From Scenedesmus sp. PABB004 (taxonomy: Eukaryota): DNA of 64,000 bases. The stretch's first letter is position 1. Each line of letters opens with the position of its first letter. Made by a program: the position numbers and the translations under genes. The notes beneath the pieces were generated by a model that searched no databases, was not told the DNA's origin, and saw only the letters and a list, made by a program, of their open reading frames with translations. Positions 25,904-40,697 of this stretch are shown piece by piece. The stretch covers positions 868,001 through 932,000 of the forward strand of contig CM026547.1 of the NCBI GenBank assembly GCA_014905635.1, read 5' to 3'.

Positions 25904-28128
25904 ATGGCGCGCTGCCGGCGCACCCTGCTGGCCCTGGCCGCCCTGGCCGCGCTGCTCCTGATCATGGCTGACGCCGCTCCCGGCGGCGGTGGGGGCGGTG
26001 GTGGCAATGGTGGGGGCAATGGCGGTGGCGGTGGCGGTGGCGGCAAGCCCGAGGACCCGCCCGGCGGCGGTGGCAACCCCAACGGCCCGCCAGGTGAGGC
26101 CGAGCGCTGGGCGCGGCTGACGCGCCTTCACTCCGGGCCGGCGACCCGGCTCGGAAGTTCCAGCATCTGACGCACAGCCCCGGCAGCCCGTGGCTGCATG
26201 AACGCAGCCGCGGCGCGGCGTGGCGGCATCAGCACACGAGTGCCGCGCCGGGCGCGGCGGCGATCGGCCCCGGGCGGGGGGCGCACGCACGGCGTCACCC
26301 GTACTCGCTGCTGCCGCCGCGCTCGCAGGCGGCGGCCCGCTGCCCGGCGAGAGCCCCAAGCCCCGCGAGAGCCCCAAGCCTGAGGGTGGTGCGTCTCCGC
26401 GCCGGCACGCACCGTCCCCCCTGCGCCGCACGCCGCTGACGCCCACGCCGCGCCGCCGCCGTGCCCGCAGGCGAGCCGCCCGAGAGCCCCGACCCGAATG
26501 GCCCCGTTGGCGGCGAGGGCGCTCCAGATGCGAGCCCAGCGCCCGGCGATGACAAGGGCGGCAGGCCCGGTGACAAGGGCGGCAAGCCCGGCGACAAGGG
26601 CGGTGCGTGTCTGGCGCCGCGCGCGGCTGCCGCCCGCCCTAGCCCCCCCCCCCCGCTCACGCCTGCGCCGCGCCTGCGGGCCGCAGGCAAGCCCGGCGAG
26701 AGCCCTGAGCCCGGCGAGAGCCCCAAGCCCGACGGTGACAAGGGCGGCAAGCCCGGCGACAAGGGCGGTGCGTGTCTGGCGCCGCGCGCGGCTGCCGCCC
26801 GCCCTAGTCCCCCCCCCCGCTCACGCCTGCGCCGCGCCTGCGGGCCGCAGGCAAGCCCGGCGAGAGCCCTGAGCCCGGCGAGAGCCCCAAGCCCGACGGT
26901 GACAAGGGCGGCAAGCCCGGCGACAAGGGCGGTGCGTGTCTGGCGCCGCGCGCGGCTGCCGCCCGCCCTAGTCCCCCCCCCCCCCGCTCACGCCTGCGCC
27001 GCGCCTGCGGGCCGCAGGCAAGCCCGGCGAGAGCCCTGAGCCCGGCGAGAGCCCCAAGCCCGACGGTGACAAGGGCGGCAAGCCCGGCGACAAGGGCGGT
27101 GCGTGTCTGGCGCCGCCGCGCGCCCGCCGCTGCCTGCCCTCGGCACCCGCGCGGCGGCCCCGCCCGCTCACGCCTGCGCCGCGCCTGCCGTCTGCAGGCA
27201 AGCCCGGCAAGAGCCCCAAGCCGGGCGAGAGCCCCAAGCCCGGCGAGAGCCCCAAGCCCGGCAAGCCCAAGTGCGGCGGCGCGGGCCAGCCGTGCTGCAG
27301 TCGGGGCAACAGCGGCGGTGGCCAGCTGTACTGCAATGGCCAGACGCTCGTGTGCGACGGCACCACCGACTCTGGGGTGCCGACCTGCGCCGCGTGCGGC
27401 CTCCTGGGCATAAGGTGCGCGCGCGCGCACCAAACAGGCGCACGCCTACTACTGTCACTGGCGGCCAGGCCGCCGGCGCACGTGTGCGACGCGCCGCGCG
27501 GGACAGCGCCGACCACCGCGCGCCGCGCCGCCGCCGCCGCCGGCTGCCAGGTGCTGCAAGGGAGCCAAGACGCCGAGCGGCAACTCGCTGCGCTCGTGCC
27601 GCGGCAACTTCAAGTGCCTCGAGGGCACCATTCCCGACCCGAGCGACGACGCGAAGAACATCACCGTCGCCGTGTGCCAGGCCAAGGGCAAGAAGCTCAA
27701 CCCCGGCAGGGTGCGCTGATTTCGGCGGCGGCCGCCCGCGCGCGCCTCGTGTGCGCCCGGGCCCCCGCGGCCGCCGGCGGCGCGGCAGGGCCGTGCGCGC
27801 GCGCGCCCGCGGGCGCACACACACCTGCTGCGCCGCTCACCACGCGCCCGCCGCCCCTCACCGCCGCTGCCAGATCAACGACTCCGACCTGTCCGACGGC
27901 GACGGCTTGAGGGTCGTCGACACGCCTGCCAGCCCCGAGCCCGGCAGCTCCCCCTCGCCCGAGCCCGACAGCTCCTCCTCGCCCGAGCCGGGGAGCCCCT
28001 CGCCCGAGCCCGACAGCCCCAGCCCCTCGCCCGAGCCCGACAGCCCCAGCCCCTCGCCCGAGCCCGACAGCCCCTCGCCCGACCCCACGACGACGCCCGA
28101 TCCCAACACCTCCTCGCCGGCCCCTTGA
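25904..28128 (+). CDS. Secreted Gly/Pro-rich (HRGP-like) protein with KPGESP/GDKG repeats, two Cys-rich modules and an SP-rich tail (9 exons)
   Basis: Signal peptide MARCRRTLLALAALAALLLIMADA; phase-consistent GT-AG introns; CGGAGQPCC and CGLLGIRCC modules; SPSPEPD repeats; TGTAA at 28633. Confidence 0.85.
26603..27197 (+). repeat. Tandem ~165-bp intron+exon repeat (about 3.5 copies)
   Basis: Three identical 81-nt exons (26687-26767, 26851-26931, 27018-27098) separated by near-identical introns differing mainly in poly-C length. Confidence 0.95.
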
Positions 28129-36023: not shown

Positions 36024-37954
36024 ATGGAAGGTCCGATGGATCCCGCGCTGCTGGCGTGGATGCTGCGCATCGAGGAGACGGAGGTGCGGGCCTGAGAGGC
36101 TCGAGCCGAGCACCGCCGACGCCGCCTGCTGATTCGGGCGGCGGGCGCCGCCGCCGACGCGGGCGCCGCGGGGCCGCAGAAGCTTCTGGGCACGCGGAAG
36201 GCCGACCTGGCGGCCCAGCAGGCGCGGCGGATCGAGCTGGAGCGCGAGCTGGCTGCAGAGGACGCGGCGCACGTGCGGCGCGCTGCTCGCGGCTCGCGCA
36301 GGCCCGGCCGCGCTGCGGCGCCGTGCTGCCTGCCGCGGCTCTGCCGCAGGCCAAGGCAGCAATCTGCCCCCCTGCTCCAGGACGCGGCGCGCGAGGAGCT
36401 GGCGGCCGTGCGGGAGGCGACGCACGCGCTCATGCGCGCGCGGCTCGCGGCGGGCCGCGACATCCAGGCGGCGCGCGATCAGCTCGCCGCGGCGCAGGCC
36501 ACCGCACCGTGAGCGGCGCACGCGCGGCCGGCCCGCACCGCGCCGCGCCGCGCCCACGCTGCGCCGCCCGGCTGCAGGCTGGTGGTGGAGCAGCGGTGCC
36601 TGCAGGAGCGGCTGGCGCGCCTCGCCGCCGCCCCGCGCGGTGAGGAGCAGGTGCAGCAGCAGTACGAGGCCAGCGTGGCGACGCACATGGACGACTGCGC
36701 CGCGCCGGCCAGGGCGTTGGAGGCCAAGGCTGCCAAGGTGCGCCGCGCGACGTCGCTGGTGACCCGGCGTGCGGCTGTGTGCTGCCTCGGCGCGCGTGCG
36801 AGGTCCTGCACACCCACCGCGCGCTGTGGAAGGGGCCGGGGAGGGCTGGCGGCCAGGCGCGCGCCGCGGTGCCGCCCTGTTAGTCGCCACCCGCCCGGCG
36901 GGGGCCGCCTGCGCGGTGTGCGTGGCGCGCGTGGGCGCTCACAAGGCTCGGGGGCGTGTCTGCAGCAGTCCTCAGGGCCTGGCGCGCGCGGTCAACCCGC
37001 CCTGCTTTGGCCGGTGTCACCGGCGCCGCGCCGGCAGCCGCACCGGGCAGGCACGCGTGCAGCGGGGTCTCTCGGTCACAGCGCGAGGCGCTGCCCCGCG
37101 CGTCCCCGGCACCGCGGCTGCCCCCGCTGATACGCTCGCATCCGGGGCCGCGGTCGCGGCCCGCTGCGCCAACCGGGGGCCGGCACGCCCCGTCGCGCGG
37201 CGCACGTTGCGTCGCCCCACAAGCGTCGGCGCTCGCCCGGGCGACGCGGCGAGGCTCGGGGCGCAGCAGTCCTCGGAGCCTGGCGTGCGCGGTCAGCCCC
37301 GGCTCCGCCGCCCTGCAGCGGCGCTGCACTCGGGCACCGCCGGCGGTGCCTCGAGGCGTTTCGAGAGACTGACGGCGCGCCCCCGCTGCGCCACACAGGC
37401 CGAGGCGGCGCTGGAGCGGCTGCAGCGGCAGCACGCGGAGCTGGGTCTGGAGCAGCAGCTGGCGCAGCTCGCAGCGGAGCGCGAGGAGCTGCGCGGCGAG
37501 GCGGAGCGCCTGACGCGCGCGCTGGCGACGGCCGAGCATGCCAGCGCCGCCCGGGCGGCCAAGGTCGCGGCCGCCGCCGCCAGCACCGCCGCCGAGCTCG
37601 CGGCCGCCCAGGTGGGCAGCGGCGCAGCGCGGCAGCGGGGGAATCGGGCGCGCGGCGGCTGACGCGGCGCCGCGGCGCGTCGCAGGAGCGGCTGGCCGTG
37701 CTCAGGGCCGAGGCGTTTGAGGGCGGCCGCCGCCACGCCGTGAACGGCGCCAGGTGAGGGCCTCGGCCGAGCGCCGGCGGGCGGCGCGCTGCGCCGACGC
37801 GCGCGCGCGCGCGCTCAGCCCCGCCCCGCCCCCGCCGCGCAGGCTGCGGCAGCTCTGCGTGGAGGAGGGGGCGCTCGCGCAGCAGGCTGCCGAGCTCGAC
37901 GCCCAGATCGCCCGCGCGGCGGCCGCGCTGGACCAGCTGGCCGGCGACGTGTGA
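36024..37954 (+). CDS. Uncharacterised coiled-coil protein (7 exons)
   Basis: MEGPMDPALLAWMLRIEETE|KLLGTRKADLAAQQARRIELERELAAE...AEAALERLQRQHAELGLEQQLAQLAAEREELRGEAERL...LDQLAGDV*; six phase-consistent GT-AG introns; E/Q/A/L/R heptads. Confidence 0.72.
36754..37254 (+). repeat. Left arm of a ~500-bp inverted repeat (inside intron 36738-37398)
   Basis: Reverse complement of 38181-38683; I saw 2 substitutions and one 2-bp indel. Confidence 0.95.
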
Positions 37955-38180
37955 CGGACGGCGCCGCCGCGCGTAGCGGCCGGCGAGCGCCCGCCAGTTG
38001 CGGGCGGTTGGCGCCCGCAACTGGCGGGCGCGGCGGCTGCGGCGGCTCTCTGCGGCCTGCGCGGCTGCGCGTCGGCCGCGCGTCGCAGCGTGCGCGCCGC
38101 GCTCGGCGCCGTGCGCGCCCGGGCGCGCGGGCAGAGCCTGGGCAGGCCGGGCCGGCCGCCCTGGCGCGCGCGCGGACGCC

Positions 38181-38683
38181 CCTCGCCGCGTCGCCCGGGC
38201 GAGCGCCGACGCTTGTGGGGCGACGCAACGTGCGCCGCGCGACGGGGCGTGCCGTGGCCCCCGGTTGGCGCAGCGGGCCGCGACCGCGGCCCCGGATGCG
38301 AGCGTACCAGCGGGGGCAGCCGCGGTGCCGGGGACGCGCGGGGCAGCGCCTCGCGCTGTGACCGAGAGACCCCGCTGCACGCGTGCCTGCCCGGTGCGGC
38401 TGCCGGCGCGGCGCCGGTGACACCGGCCAAAGCAGGGCGGGTTGACCGCGCGCGCCAGGCCCTGAGGACTGCTGCAGACACGCCCCCGAGCCTTGTGAGC
38501 GCCCACGCGCGCCACGCACACCGCGCAGGCGGCCCCCGCCGGGCGGGTGGCGACTAACAGGGCGGCACCGCGGCGCGCGCCTGGCCGCCGGCCCTCCCCG
38601 GCCCCTTCCACAGCGCGCGGTGGGTGTGCAGGACCTCGCACGCGCGCCGAGGCAGCACACAGCCGCACGCCGGGTCACCAGCG
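38181..38683 (-). repeat. Right arm of the ~500-bp inverted repeat (between the coiled-coil gene stop and the cyclin-like gene)
   Basis: Reverse complement of 36754-37254; the ORF track shows near-identical translations on opposite strands. Confidence 0.95.
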
Positions 38684-39062
38684 CCCGCCCGGCCAGCACG
38701 GCAGCAGCGCCGTGCGCGCGCGCTGCAGCGCCTGGCCGCCCGCGTGCAGCAGGGAGCTGTTAAGCCAGACCCGTCGGCGGCGCGCGTGGAGCTGGAGGGC
38801 CCCAGGTGCGCCGGGGCGCGGCAGCGCGCGGCAGCAGCGGGCGCGGCCCCGCGCCGGCCGGGCCGCGCCGCCCGCGCGGACCTCCCACGCGCACGTGGAC
38901 GCGCCTGGGCGCGCCCTGGGGCGCGCGCCGTGCCGGGACGCGGGCCCCGCGGCCCCGGCTGCCGCCCTCAACACCTGCCCGCCCCGCGCCCGCGCCGCAG
39001 TCGCGCCGTCCGGCGCGCGCCGGCGGCCTGGGAGGGCGCCTGAGCGCCCAGGGCGCGGCCCG

Positions 39063-40697
39063 ATGGCGGTCCCGCGCGACGCCTGCTTCGGCAGCGTGCT
39101 GGCGCTGCAGATTGCGGGCAGCGCAGCGGCGCTGGCGCCGGCGCCCTGCGCCCTGACCGCCTGCGGCGGCGCCCACGAGGAGGCGGGCAGCACCAGCAGC
39201 ACGCCGCTCGCGGCGCCGGGCCTGGCGCCGTGCGCGCGCGGCGCGCCGGGCCGCGGCGGCGCCGCGTGCTGCGGCGCGCCCGCGCCGGCGCCGCCGCCCT
39301 GCGCCCCGGGGGGCTCCCTTGGCGGCGCGCCGTACTTCTACGCCTCTTCTCATGGCGGCGCCGGCCTGGACGACGCGAGCGCGAGCCCGCTGTCGTCGAG
39401 CAGCCGCGTCGCGCTGGGCGGCGGCGCGCTCACGCCCGCCTCGGGCGCCGAGGCGGTCAGCGCGGCGCGCGTGGCCGGCTGCAAGCGCGCCCACGACGGC
39501 GCCGCGGCCGCGGCGGAGCTCGCGGCGGCGGCGCAGCAGCAGCACGAGCAGCGCGCGCGCCGGACGCTCCTGGCGCAGCGGCAGGCGCAGCTGCTGGCGG
39601 CCGGCCGCCAGCAGCAGCAGCAGGCCCAGCTCGCGGCGGCGGCACAGCAGGCGCAGCTGGCGCAGCTGGCGCAGCTGGCGCAGCTGGCACGGCAGGCGCA
39701 GCAGGCGCAGCAGGCGCAGCAGGCGCAGCAGGCGCAGCAGGCGCAGCTCGCGGCGGCACACCTCGGCGGCGCTGGCCAGCGCGGCGGGCGCCACGCAGGG
39801 CCCGACGGCGCGGCCGCCGCCGGCTGCGCGCTCGTGTCGCAGGGCAGCGGCACCAGCAGCGGCAGCAGCTGGAGCAGCGGCGCCGGGCTGCCCTGCGGCG
39901 GCGGCGCGAGCTTCGCGGGCGCGAGCTTCACGAGCGGCGGCAGCAGCTCCTCGGCGCACTCGGCCTGGCAGGCGCTGGTGCAGCAGCAGCAGGCCAAGGC
40001 GGTCGCGGCGTCGGCCGACGCGCACGCCTTCGTGCGGCGCCAGCAGCAGGAGCAGCTGCAGCTGCAGCAGCAGCTGCAGCAGCCCGCCAAGCGTGCGGCG
40101 ACGCAGTCGGCCGTCGCCGCGCTGCTGCGCACGTCGGCCGGCGCCGCGCAGCACGGGCTGCAGCTCGCGTGCGCGGGCGGCCAGCGCCACGCCCCGCCCG
40201 CGCGCGGCAGCAGCAACTGCCTGGCGGGCCTGGCCGCGGCGGCGGCCGCGGCCGCGGCCGCGGCGGCCGCGGCCTCCGCTGCCGCGACCGCCGCGGCGGG
40301 CGCGCCGCGGCGCTGCCCCGAGCCCGTGTGCAACCGCCTGCTCGCGTGGGCGGGGCAGGTGCTCAACTGCCAGACGCAGGACGCGTACCTGCTGGCGGTG
40401 CACATCTTCCGCCGCGTGGCGGGGCGGCTGGACGAGCTGCTGCTCATCAGCCTCGGCGCCGCCGCGCCGGCGGACGAGCTCGCGATGCTCGTGTCGCTCT
40501 GGCTCGCGACCAAGCTCGAGGGCCACCGCCGCCAGGTCGCGGCCTGCAGCCGGCTCGCGCGCGCGCTGCGGCTGCTGCCGTGGGCGGTGACGTCGGTCGA
40601 GCTGCACCTCATGCAGCTCATGGACTGGCAGCCCTACGCCGGCTGGGCGGCGCGGCCCGCGGAGCCGAGCTGCGTCGTCACAGAGTGCTGCTGCTGA
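39063..40697 (+). CDS. Intronless divergent cyclin-box protein with a long Gln/Ala-rich N-terminus (544 aa)
   Basis: C-terminal AYLLAVHIFRR...LVSLWLATKLE...VELHLMQLMDWQ follows the cyclin N-box helices, including the conserved Lys and Glu. Confidence 0.75.
   Translation: MAVPRDACFGSVLALQIAGSAAALAPAPCALTACGGAHEEAGSTSSTPLAAPGLAPCARGAPGRGGAACCGAPAPAPPPCAPGGSLGGAPYFYASSHGGAGLDDASASPLSSSSRVALGGGALTPASGAEAVSAARVAGCKRAHDGAAAAAELAAAAQQQHEQRARRTLLAQRQAQLLAAGRQQQQQAQLAAAAQQAQLAQLAQLAQLARQAQQAQQAQQAQQAQQAQLAAAHLGGAGQRGGRHAGPDGAAAAGCALVSQGSGTSSGSSWSSGAGLPCGGGASFAGASFTSGGSSSSAHSAWQALVQQQQAKAVAASADAHAFVRRQQQEQLQLQQQLQQPAKRAATQSAVAALLRTSAGAAQHGLQLACAGGQRHAPPARGSSNCLAGLAAAAAAAAAAAAAASAAATAAAGAPRRCPEPVCNRLLAWAGQVLNCQTQDAYLLAVHIFRRVAGRLDELLLISLGAAAPADELAMLVSLWLATKLEGHRRQVAACSRLARALRLLPWAVTSVELHLMQLMDWQPYAGWAARPAEPSCVVTECCC

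Follow-up and report, generated by a model that had tools for sequence, protein, structure and literature searches.

How does an intron come to hold a nearly perfect, reversed copy of DNA that lies beyond the end of its own gene? We addressed this question for a locus in the green alga Scenedesmus sp. PABB004. The window, that is, the whole stretch of DNA analysed, comprises 64,000 nucleotides (contig CM026547.1, positions 868,001 to 932,000, forward strand), has a G+C content of about 79% and contains genes with short spliceosomal introns. Coordinates below are those of the window.

A near-perfect inverted pair split between an intron and the 3' flank

The initial annotation had described a near-perfect inverted duplication of about 500 bp around the terminal exons of a gene, here called gene A, and global alignment of the two arms bears this out. 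The left arm (501 nt) and the right arm (503 nt) are mutual reverse complements with three sites of difference: two substitutions, at 36847/38590 and 37130/38307, and one 2-nt indel, at 37181/38255-38256. This likeness is far above chance (1.9e-257 in a search of the organism's own genome), the arm edges are sharp on both sides, and all four arm junctions lead into unique sequence. The parts of the pair are as follows.

36754..37254, no strand assigned: left arm, inside intron 4; putative inserted copy
38181..38683, no strand assigned: right arm, non-coding, between the gene A stop and a cyclin-like gene; putative donor
37255..38180, plus strand: spacer of 926 nt, with exons 5-7 and the beginning of the 3' flank

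That the spacer holds the terminal exons (37399-37954), as first described, follows from the alignment together with a seven-exon gene model. The two substitutions amount to 0.4% and suggest, from the sequence comparison, either a recent origin or recent conversion between the arms.

The absence of a target-site duplication and of internal terminal inverted repeats, also remarked on initially, held up under measurement: we found no target-site duplication longer than 3 nt at the left arm, no flanking duplication longer than 2 nt around the whole arm-spacer-arm unit, and a terminal inverted repeat of 1 nt at most within either arm. Near the edges of the right arm lies a 5-nt direct repeat, of a kind seen equally in 10% of random position pairs. 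The arm had no Rfam family match at E up to 1, and its CpG observed/expected ratio (1.12, against 1.19 in the background) shows no CpG loss. A coding role for the right arm was ruled out: under a codon model trained on 92 sample loci it scored -0.2 or lower in all six frames, compared with 0.26-0.34 for the seven gene A exons in their expected frame.

Gene A and the anatomy of intron 4

Two features describe the gene into which the left arm falls.

36024..37954, plus strand: gene A, seven exons, 277 aa, coiled-coil-like; its last exon has a counterpart on a related metagenome contig (L086)
37317..37398, plus strand: rest of intron 4, with a branch-like CTGAC at 37369 and the acceptor; without significant likeness to the arm

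The seven-exon model is open across all 277 codons with the frame intact, and exons 5-7, inside the spacer, occupy 37399-37611, 37686-37753 and 37843-37954. Families were scanned for with pieces of both flanking genes and two frames over the right arm. With the exon pieces of gene A as queries we found no homologue and no family match above the cut-off, Pfam included; the look-alikes were weak coiled-coil matches only.

Introns 1-6 measure 96, 108, 69, 661, 74 and 89 nt. The donor of intron 4 lies at 36738 and the left arm begins 16 nt into the intron, exactly as had been annotated. Taking out the left arm leaves 160 nt; taking out a second, diverged piece beside it (patch 2, below) as well leaves about 98 nt, which resembles the other five introns of the gene (69-108 nt). 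Intron size alone is nevertheless weak evidence of an insertion, because the median of 61 introns, a rough and biased set, was 187 nt. We also considered, and rejected, that the arm had been copied long ago into the remainder of intron 4 and the beginning of exon 5: 880 of 1500 random windows score as high against the arm as 37319-37398, and 314 of 1500 equal the exon 5 start.

Two further right-arm pieces adjoin the left arm

Beside the left arm lie two further pieces of the right arm that the initial annotation had overlooked.

36738..36752, plus strand: patch 1, opening intron 4 with 15 nt that include the donor GT; an exact direct-orientation match to 38230-38244
37252..37316, plus strand: patch 2, a diverged inverted copy of 38432-38493 (48-65 nt)

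The core of patch 2 (37252-37299) aligns to 38439-38493 with 44 of 48 positions matching; the four differences are transitions, and 7 nt are missing. Beyond the core, a further 9-nt match extends up to 37316. At its joint, patch 2 shares a 3-nt overlap with the last three bases of the left arm, and it is more diverged than the long arm. Among 1500 random windows drawn from 78 loci, one reached the score of patch 1 and none that of patch 2, and the 15-mer of patch 1 occurs once in 1.56 Mb of background. A stricter control took the neighbours of random 501-nt stretches in 92 loci, with one satellite locus (L063) excluded. Here patch 1 was equalled in 38 of 3000 trials and patch 2 in 76 of 3000, and both kinds of neighbour occurred together in 9 of 3000; the control cases listed resemble GC-rich DNA or tandem repeats. 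Beside the right arm no patch was found, with 1296 and 1095 of 1500 random windows scoring as high as its flanks.

Because both extra patches adjoin the left arm and none adjoins the right, the sequence points to the intron as recipient and to the non-coding DNA upstream of the cyclin-like gene as donor. The direction of copying rests on this patchwork, as no pre-insertion allele occurs in the data examined. The initial annotation had taken the left copy for a recent insertion. Its first half is strengthened by the patches at the left arm only and by the non-coding nature of the right arm; 'recent' is likely without being certain, since an older pair could have stayed alike through conversion between its arms.

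Being identical to 38230-38244, patch 1 is complementary to 37191-37205 within the left arm, and the 15-bp helix between the two forms in the predicted fold of the intron alone. As a switch masking the intron-4 donor, patch 1 was rejected: the cost of opening this donor (8.3-10.1 kcal/mol) lies within the range of the other five donors (1.7-11.9 kcal/mol).

The order of gene A and the cyclin-like gene is conserved

The right arm lies upstream of a gene on the same strand as gene A.

39063..40697, plus strand: downstream gene (P0001), 544 aa, with a cyclin-box-like C-terminal domain
38806..39000, plus strand: putative intron in the 5' untranslated part of the downstream gene, suggested by its donor and acceptor motifs

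Over the C-terminal domain, P0001 has 19 green-algal relatives at 58-80% identity, the best named one from Tetradesmus obliquus, and an alignment with seven of the 19 places the protein start at about the same position as theirs. The domain has Cyclin_N look-alikes at 0.91. Despite this cyclin-box-like conserved domain P0001 gave no Pfam match, and a profile of its family compared with solved structures found no cyclin.

Among 405 candidate stretches, one related locus was confirmed, the metagenome contig L086. It carries a counterpart of the last exon of gene A that agrees in phase and length and shares 14 of 36 residues, and the cyclin-like gene follows it there as it does here, in unchanged orientation; the contig ends short of intron 4. 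Judged by this shared arrangement, the order of gene A followed by the cyclin-like gene is old and the spacer unflipped, because L086 keeps the last exon upstream of the cyclin-like gene in the same orientation. Within this assembly, too, the spacer is unflipped: exons 5-7 continue the frame, and the last exon is oriented as in L086. From the gene A stop to the start of the next gene there are 673 nt in L086, compared with 1108 nt here and 605 nt here without the right arm. From the same stop to a conserved motif of the next gene the distances are 1147, 1429 and 926 nt, respectively; the L086 value falls between the other two and therefore gives no direction of copying. Among the matches listed, the L086 DNA had no convincing likeness to the arm.

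The arm is locus-specific, and local inverted pairs recur in the genome

The initial annotation had left open that the arm is an ordinary dispersed repeat, to be settled by copy number. It is not: only two full copies were found in the 40-Mb genome (39,974,002 bases in 80 contigs). The search, which is a lower bound, returned at least five matches, namely the two arms, patch 2 and two partial matches of 69-74%, the last two being GC-rich look-alikes in unrelated genes.

How often local inverted pairs arise elsewhere was judged from 95 stretches of 10 kb, of which 93 were placed at round coordinates blind to content and 2 were chosen later and left uncounted. Pairs were called comparable when inverted arms of at least 300 nt were at least 85% alike and at most 2 kb apart. 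Four of the 93 blind loci held such a pair, with identities of 89.6-98.8%.

L007: comparable pair, arms of 908 nt, 98.5% identical
L033: comparable pair, arms of 356 nt, 89.6% identical
L062: comparable pair, arms of 670 nt, 98.8% identical
L088: comparable pair, arms of at least 971 nt, 95.3% identical

Extrapolation of 4/93 gives about 170 pairs genome-wide (47-440), before losses at locus edges. In two additional pairs from blind loci the spacers measure 4.0 and 5.4 kb; for the former pair, arm length was seen only in a chosen locus. Overall, the other local pairs range from 87.5 to 98.8% identity. As local inverted pairs recur in this way (4 of 93 sampled loci), the pair studied here is less surprising. 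The comparable pairs differ in anatomy (one tRNA-Asp pair, one head-to-head SBP-domain pair and one bracketing an IspD gene), and none of those inspected is an intron insertion. We found no description of such nuclear pairs in this algal group in the literature, which was covered mainly through open-access papers.

The closest parallel, at L033 4183-6391 (G000:C7), is a two-copy, non-coding inverted pair of 356 nt and 89.6% identity that brackets the whole IspD gene; it is the one comparable pair searched genome-wide, and it is likewise two-copy. At L062 2388-4742 (G000:C20), head-to-head SBP-domain genes are 98.8% identical over 670 nt, introns included, with dissimilar flanks, which looks like a recent duplication or conversion between inverted paralogues. 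Inverted tRNA-Asp(GTC) genes at L066 4667-8507 (G000:C1, about 299.7-303.5 kb) lie in arms that are 98-99% identical over 908 nt plus 402 nt; about 78 nt of AT-richer DNA break up one side.

Other repeats were seen in passing. A tandem repeat of about 164-nt units, two of them identical, occupies 26480-27319 of the window, and a 231-nt satellite array fills the whole 10-kb sample L063 1-10000 (G000:C21). Imperfect spacerless hairpins of 110-150 nt (78-85%) occur at L009 1664-1806, L043 9330-9436, L076 600-735, L085 1027-1139 and L093 6001-6140; they are candidates for miRNA-like precursors or small elements.

Origin of the pair

The reading that we favour, with a probability of roughly 0.62, is that the left arm is a templated insertion: non-coding DNA from 1.4-1.9 kb downstream was copied backwards into intron 4 by break repair or a replication template switch, leaving a putatively neutral scar that would be spliced out with the intron. 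The three inserted pieces and their sources can be read off the sequence; the path between them is our reconstruction. The lower strand of the donor region could have served as template for all three pieces, and it would become exposed if a break near the start of the intron were resected to the right. Copying at the left end would then yield 15 nt in direct orientation from 38230-38244, while the right end would fold back, copy approximately 38432-38493, re-prime through the 3-nt overlap, copy 38181-38683 (503 nt) and join. The greater divergence of the short piece could mean that it stems from an older event with the long arm added later, that the long arm was refreshed by conversion, or that synthesis was error-prone. 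Among the points against this explanation are a length and a distance from the template well beyond those of usual polymerase-theta patches, a divergence of patch 2 that exceeds what one clean event would give, and the 5-nt direct repeat flanking the right arm. The genome has five family-A polymerase loci (assigned at family level). For Chlamydomonas, the available text of PMC8495919 describes templated insertions and microhomology use in break repair, and that of PMC9977147 describes clustered mutations beside one microhomology-associated deletion.

The opposite direction, with the right arm as the new copy between genes and a native long intron grown by older local duplications, seems improbable to us. 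It could draw on the 5-nt direct repeat flanking the right arm and on the stop-to-start distance in L086, which is nearer to the value without the right arm (605 nt) than to the present one (1108 nt). Against this, so short a repeat flanks one random pair in ten, the L086 distance to the conserved motif favours neither direction, the other gene A introns are only 69-108 nt long, and both ends of the copy must hit the edges of two older internal repeats by chance. An assembly artefact, in which one arm is a misplaced copy, is very unlikely. Arms that are 99% alike and a structure seen in the assembly only would suit it, but three sites differ between the arms, the sequence beyond each of the four junctions is unique, the frame is picked up again correctly, and the joint carries a diverged patch; the other local pairs, moreover, range from 87.5 to 98.8% identity.

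Sharp edges and arms of this length also fit certain mobile elements: a rare non-autonomous transposon that left two copies after hopping locally, or a Mutator-like element whose long terminal repeats the arms would be. Such an origin is slightly less credible again, since only two copies were found in the genome, no terminal inverted repeat lies within the arm, the duplication around the whole unit is at most 2 nt, and the exons between the arms belong by nature at the end of the gene around them. We give least credence of all to the arms acting as a switch, whether through recombination that flips exons 5-7 or through a copied promoter that drives antisense transcription, both of which the initial annotation had raised. 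The arm is indeed DNA from upstream of the cyclin-like gene, and template switching between inverted arms can invert spacers (PMC8604942); however, the spacers inverted in the cases that this source describes in its available text are a few bases long, a flip here would cut off 130 of the 277 gene A codons, and the orientation is the same as in L086. Taken together, the pair is probably ordinary: a templated inverted insertion in an intron, locus-specific and one of many local inverted pairs in this genome.

Possible consequences for RNA

An effect on RNA could be added to the same origin. Transcription of gene A would have to continue for more than 226 nt beyond the stop, reaching the right arm while intron 4 is still in place; the arms would then pair, and the duplex would be cut into small RNAs by a Dicer-like enzyme or promote back-splicing into a circle of exons 5-6. 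We consider this unlikely. The intronic arm would be lost on splicing, which may come first, the loop would measure 926 nt, the arm matches no Rfam family up to E = 1 and has not lost CpG (1.12 versus 1.19), and such pairs are common in the genome. In its favour, minimum-energy folding predicts 217 paired left-arm bases for a transcript reaching 38400 and 500 for one reaching 38720, and the genome has three Piwi-domain loci and one locus with two tandem RNase III domains (both at domain level). According to the available text of PMC4817775, Chlamydomonas DCL3 cuts mRNA stem-loops in introns and untranslated regions.

Whether transcripts extend so far bears on the poly(A) signal. In green algae this is usually TGTAA, and the initial annotation was correct that the motif is missing between the gene A stop and the right arm and that a TGTTA lies at 38758; we found no TGTAA from the stop as far as 39063. 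In this genome TGTAA is hardly enriched (89 observed against 76 expected, a ratio of 1.18, in 92 sample loci), and we rejected it as a poly(A) marker here; because of this low enrichment its absence is no evidence of read-through. The poly(A) signal of this genome may differ from TGTAA.

The 3' flank of gene A contains one more structure.

37987..38031, no strand assigned: hairpin with a perfect 20-bp stem and a 5-nt loop, 32 nt past the gene A stop

The initial annotation had overlooked this hairpin. It is a nested palindrome in which each half is itself a 7-bp hairpin, and it has a single copy in the genome; no other perfect stem in the 61 sequences scanned is as long. It may be the scar of a further snap-back, or else a small substrate for Dicer.

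A broader conjecture, which we hold to be more doubtful still than the RNA effect just described, is that local inverted duplications number about a hundred or more in this very GC-rich alga, with arms of 0.3-1 kb at distances of about 1-2 kb, that they arose by template switching and that conversion keeps their arms alike. The present locus would then be a unit that has only just begun to feed Dicer or to form circles: read-through into the upstream DNA of the next gene would pair with intron 4 and couple both genes.

On the favoured reading of a templated insertion, the locus is a clear natural case of a multi-step event with all pieces traceable to one local donor. If a census and small-RNA data indicated that many such pairs are transcribed across both arms, the alga would be a good one in which to watch hairpin-RNA loci arise from repair errors.

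Comparison with known systems

The locus differs from DNA transposons such as MITEs and Mutator-like elements in having neither the terminal inverted repeats nor the target-site duplications nor the dispersed copies by which these are recognized. With the hairpin siRNA and miRNA precursors of Chlamydomonas, as presented in PMC4817775, it shares a long inverted repeat lying where a protein-coding transcript would run. Here too the host is an alga with Argonaute and Dicer-like domains, and the arms are predicted to be able to form a long, stable duplex. In contrast to those precursors, one arm here is intronic and the other lies in the 3' flank, and the loop would hold three exons.

Closer in form is the four-point template switch of type 1-4-3-2 / 3-2-1-4 set out in the available text of PMC5453318. 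Common to both are a nearby reverse complement copied into a collinear locus and an inverted repeat with the spacer uninverted and the flanks collinear. That model covers short-range, single-round events, whereas here 501 nt came from 1.4-1.9 kb away and two patches accompany them. Complex inverted templated insertions in yeast mutants, in which two same-locus fragments in opposite orientation are a frequent class (PMC11724301), likewise share with our locus the paired fragments, their opposite orientations and, putatively, short microhomology. The yeast insertions, as far as this source describes them, draw on distant donors, with 2-119 bp between the two switch points; our locus has a local donor and 439 nt between the switch points.

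Insertions made by polymerase theta or synthesis-dependent end joining (SD-MMEJ) resemble the locus in being a patchwork of flanking DNA in direct and inverted orientation (PMC8495919, PMC5728401). The 3-nt overlap seen here at the joint between the arm and patch 2 may be a microhomology like theirs; to judge the other joints would take the ancestral sequence. The snap-back and in-trans copying described for SD-MMEJ in PMC5728401 would explain the order of the pieces. The available text gives usual polymerase-theta patches as 3-30 bp (PMC8495919) and places templating structures within 30 nt of the break (PMC5728401), a size and a distance both well below those seen here. In length and distance, the insertion fits break-induced or replication template switching better than polymerase-theta or SD-MMEJ patches.
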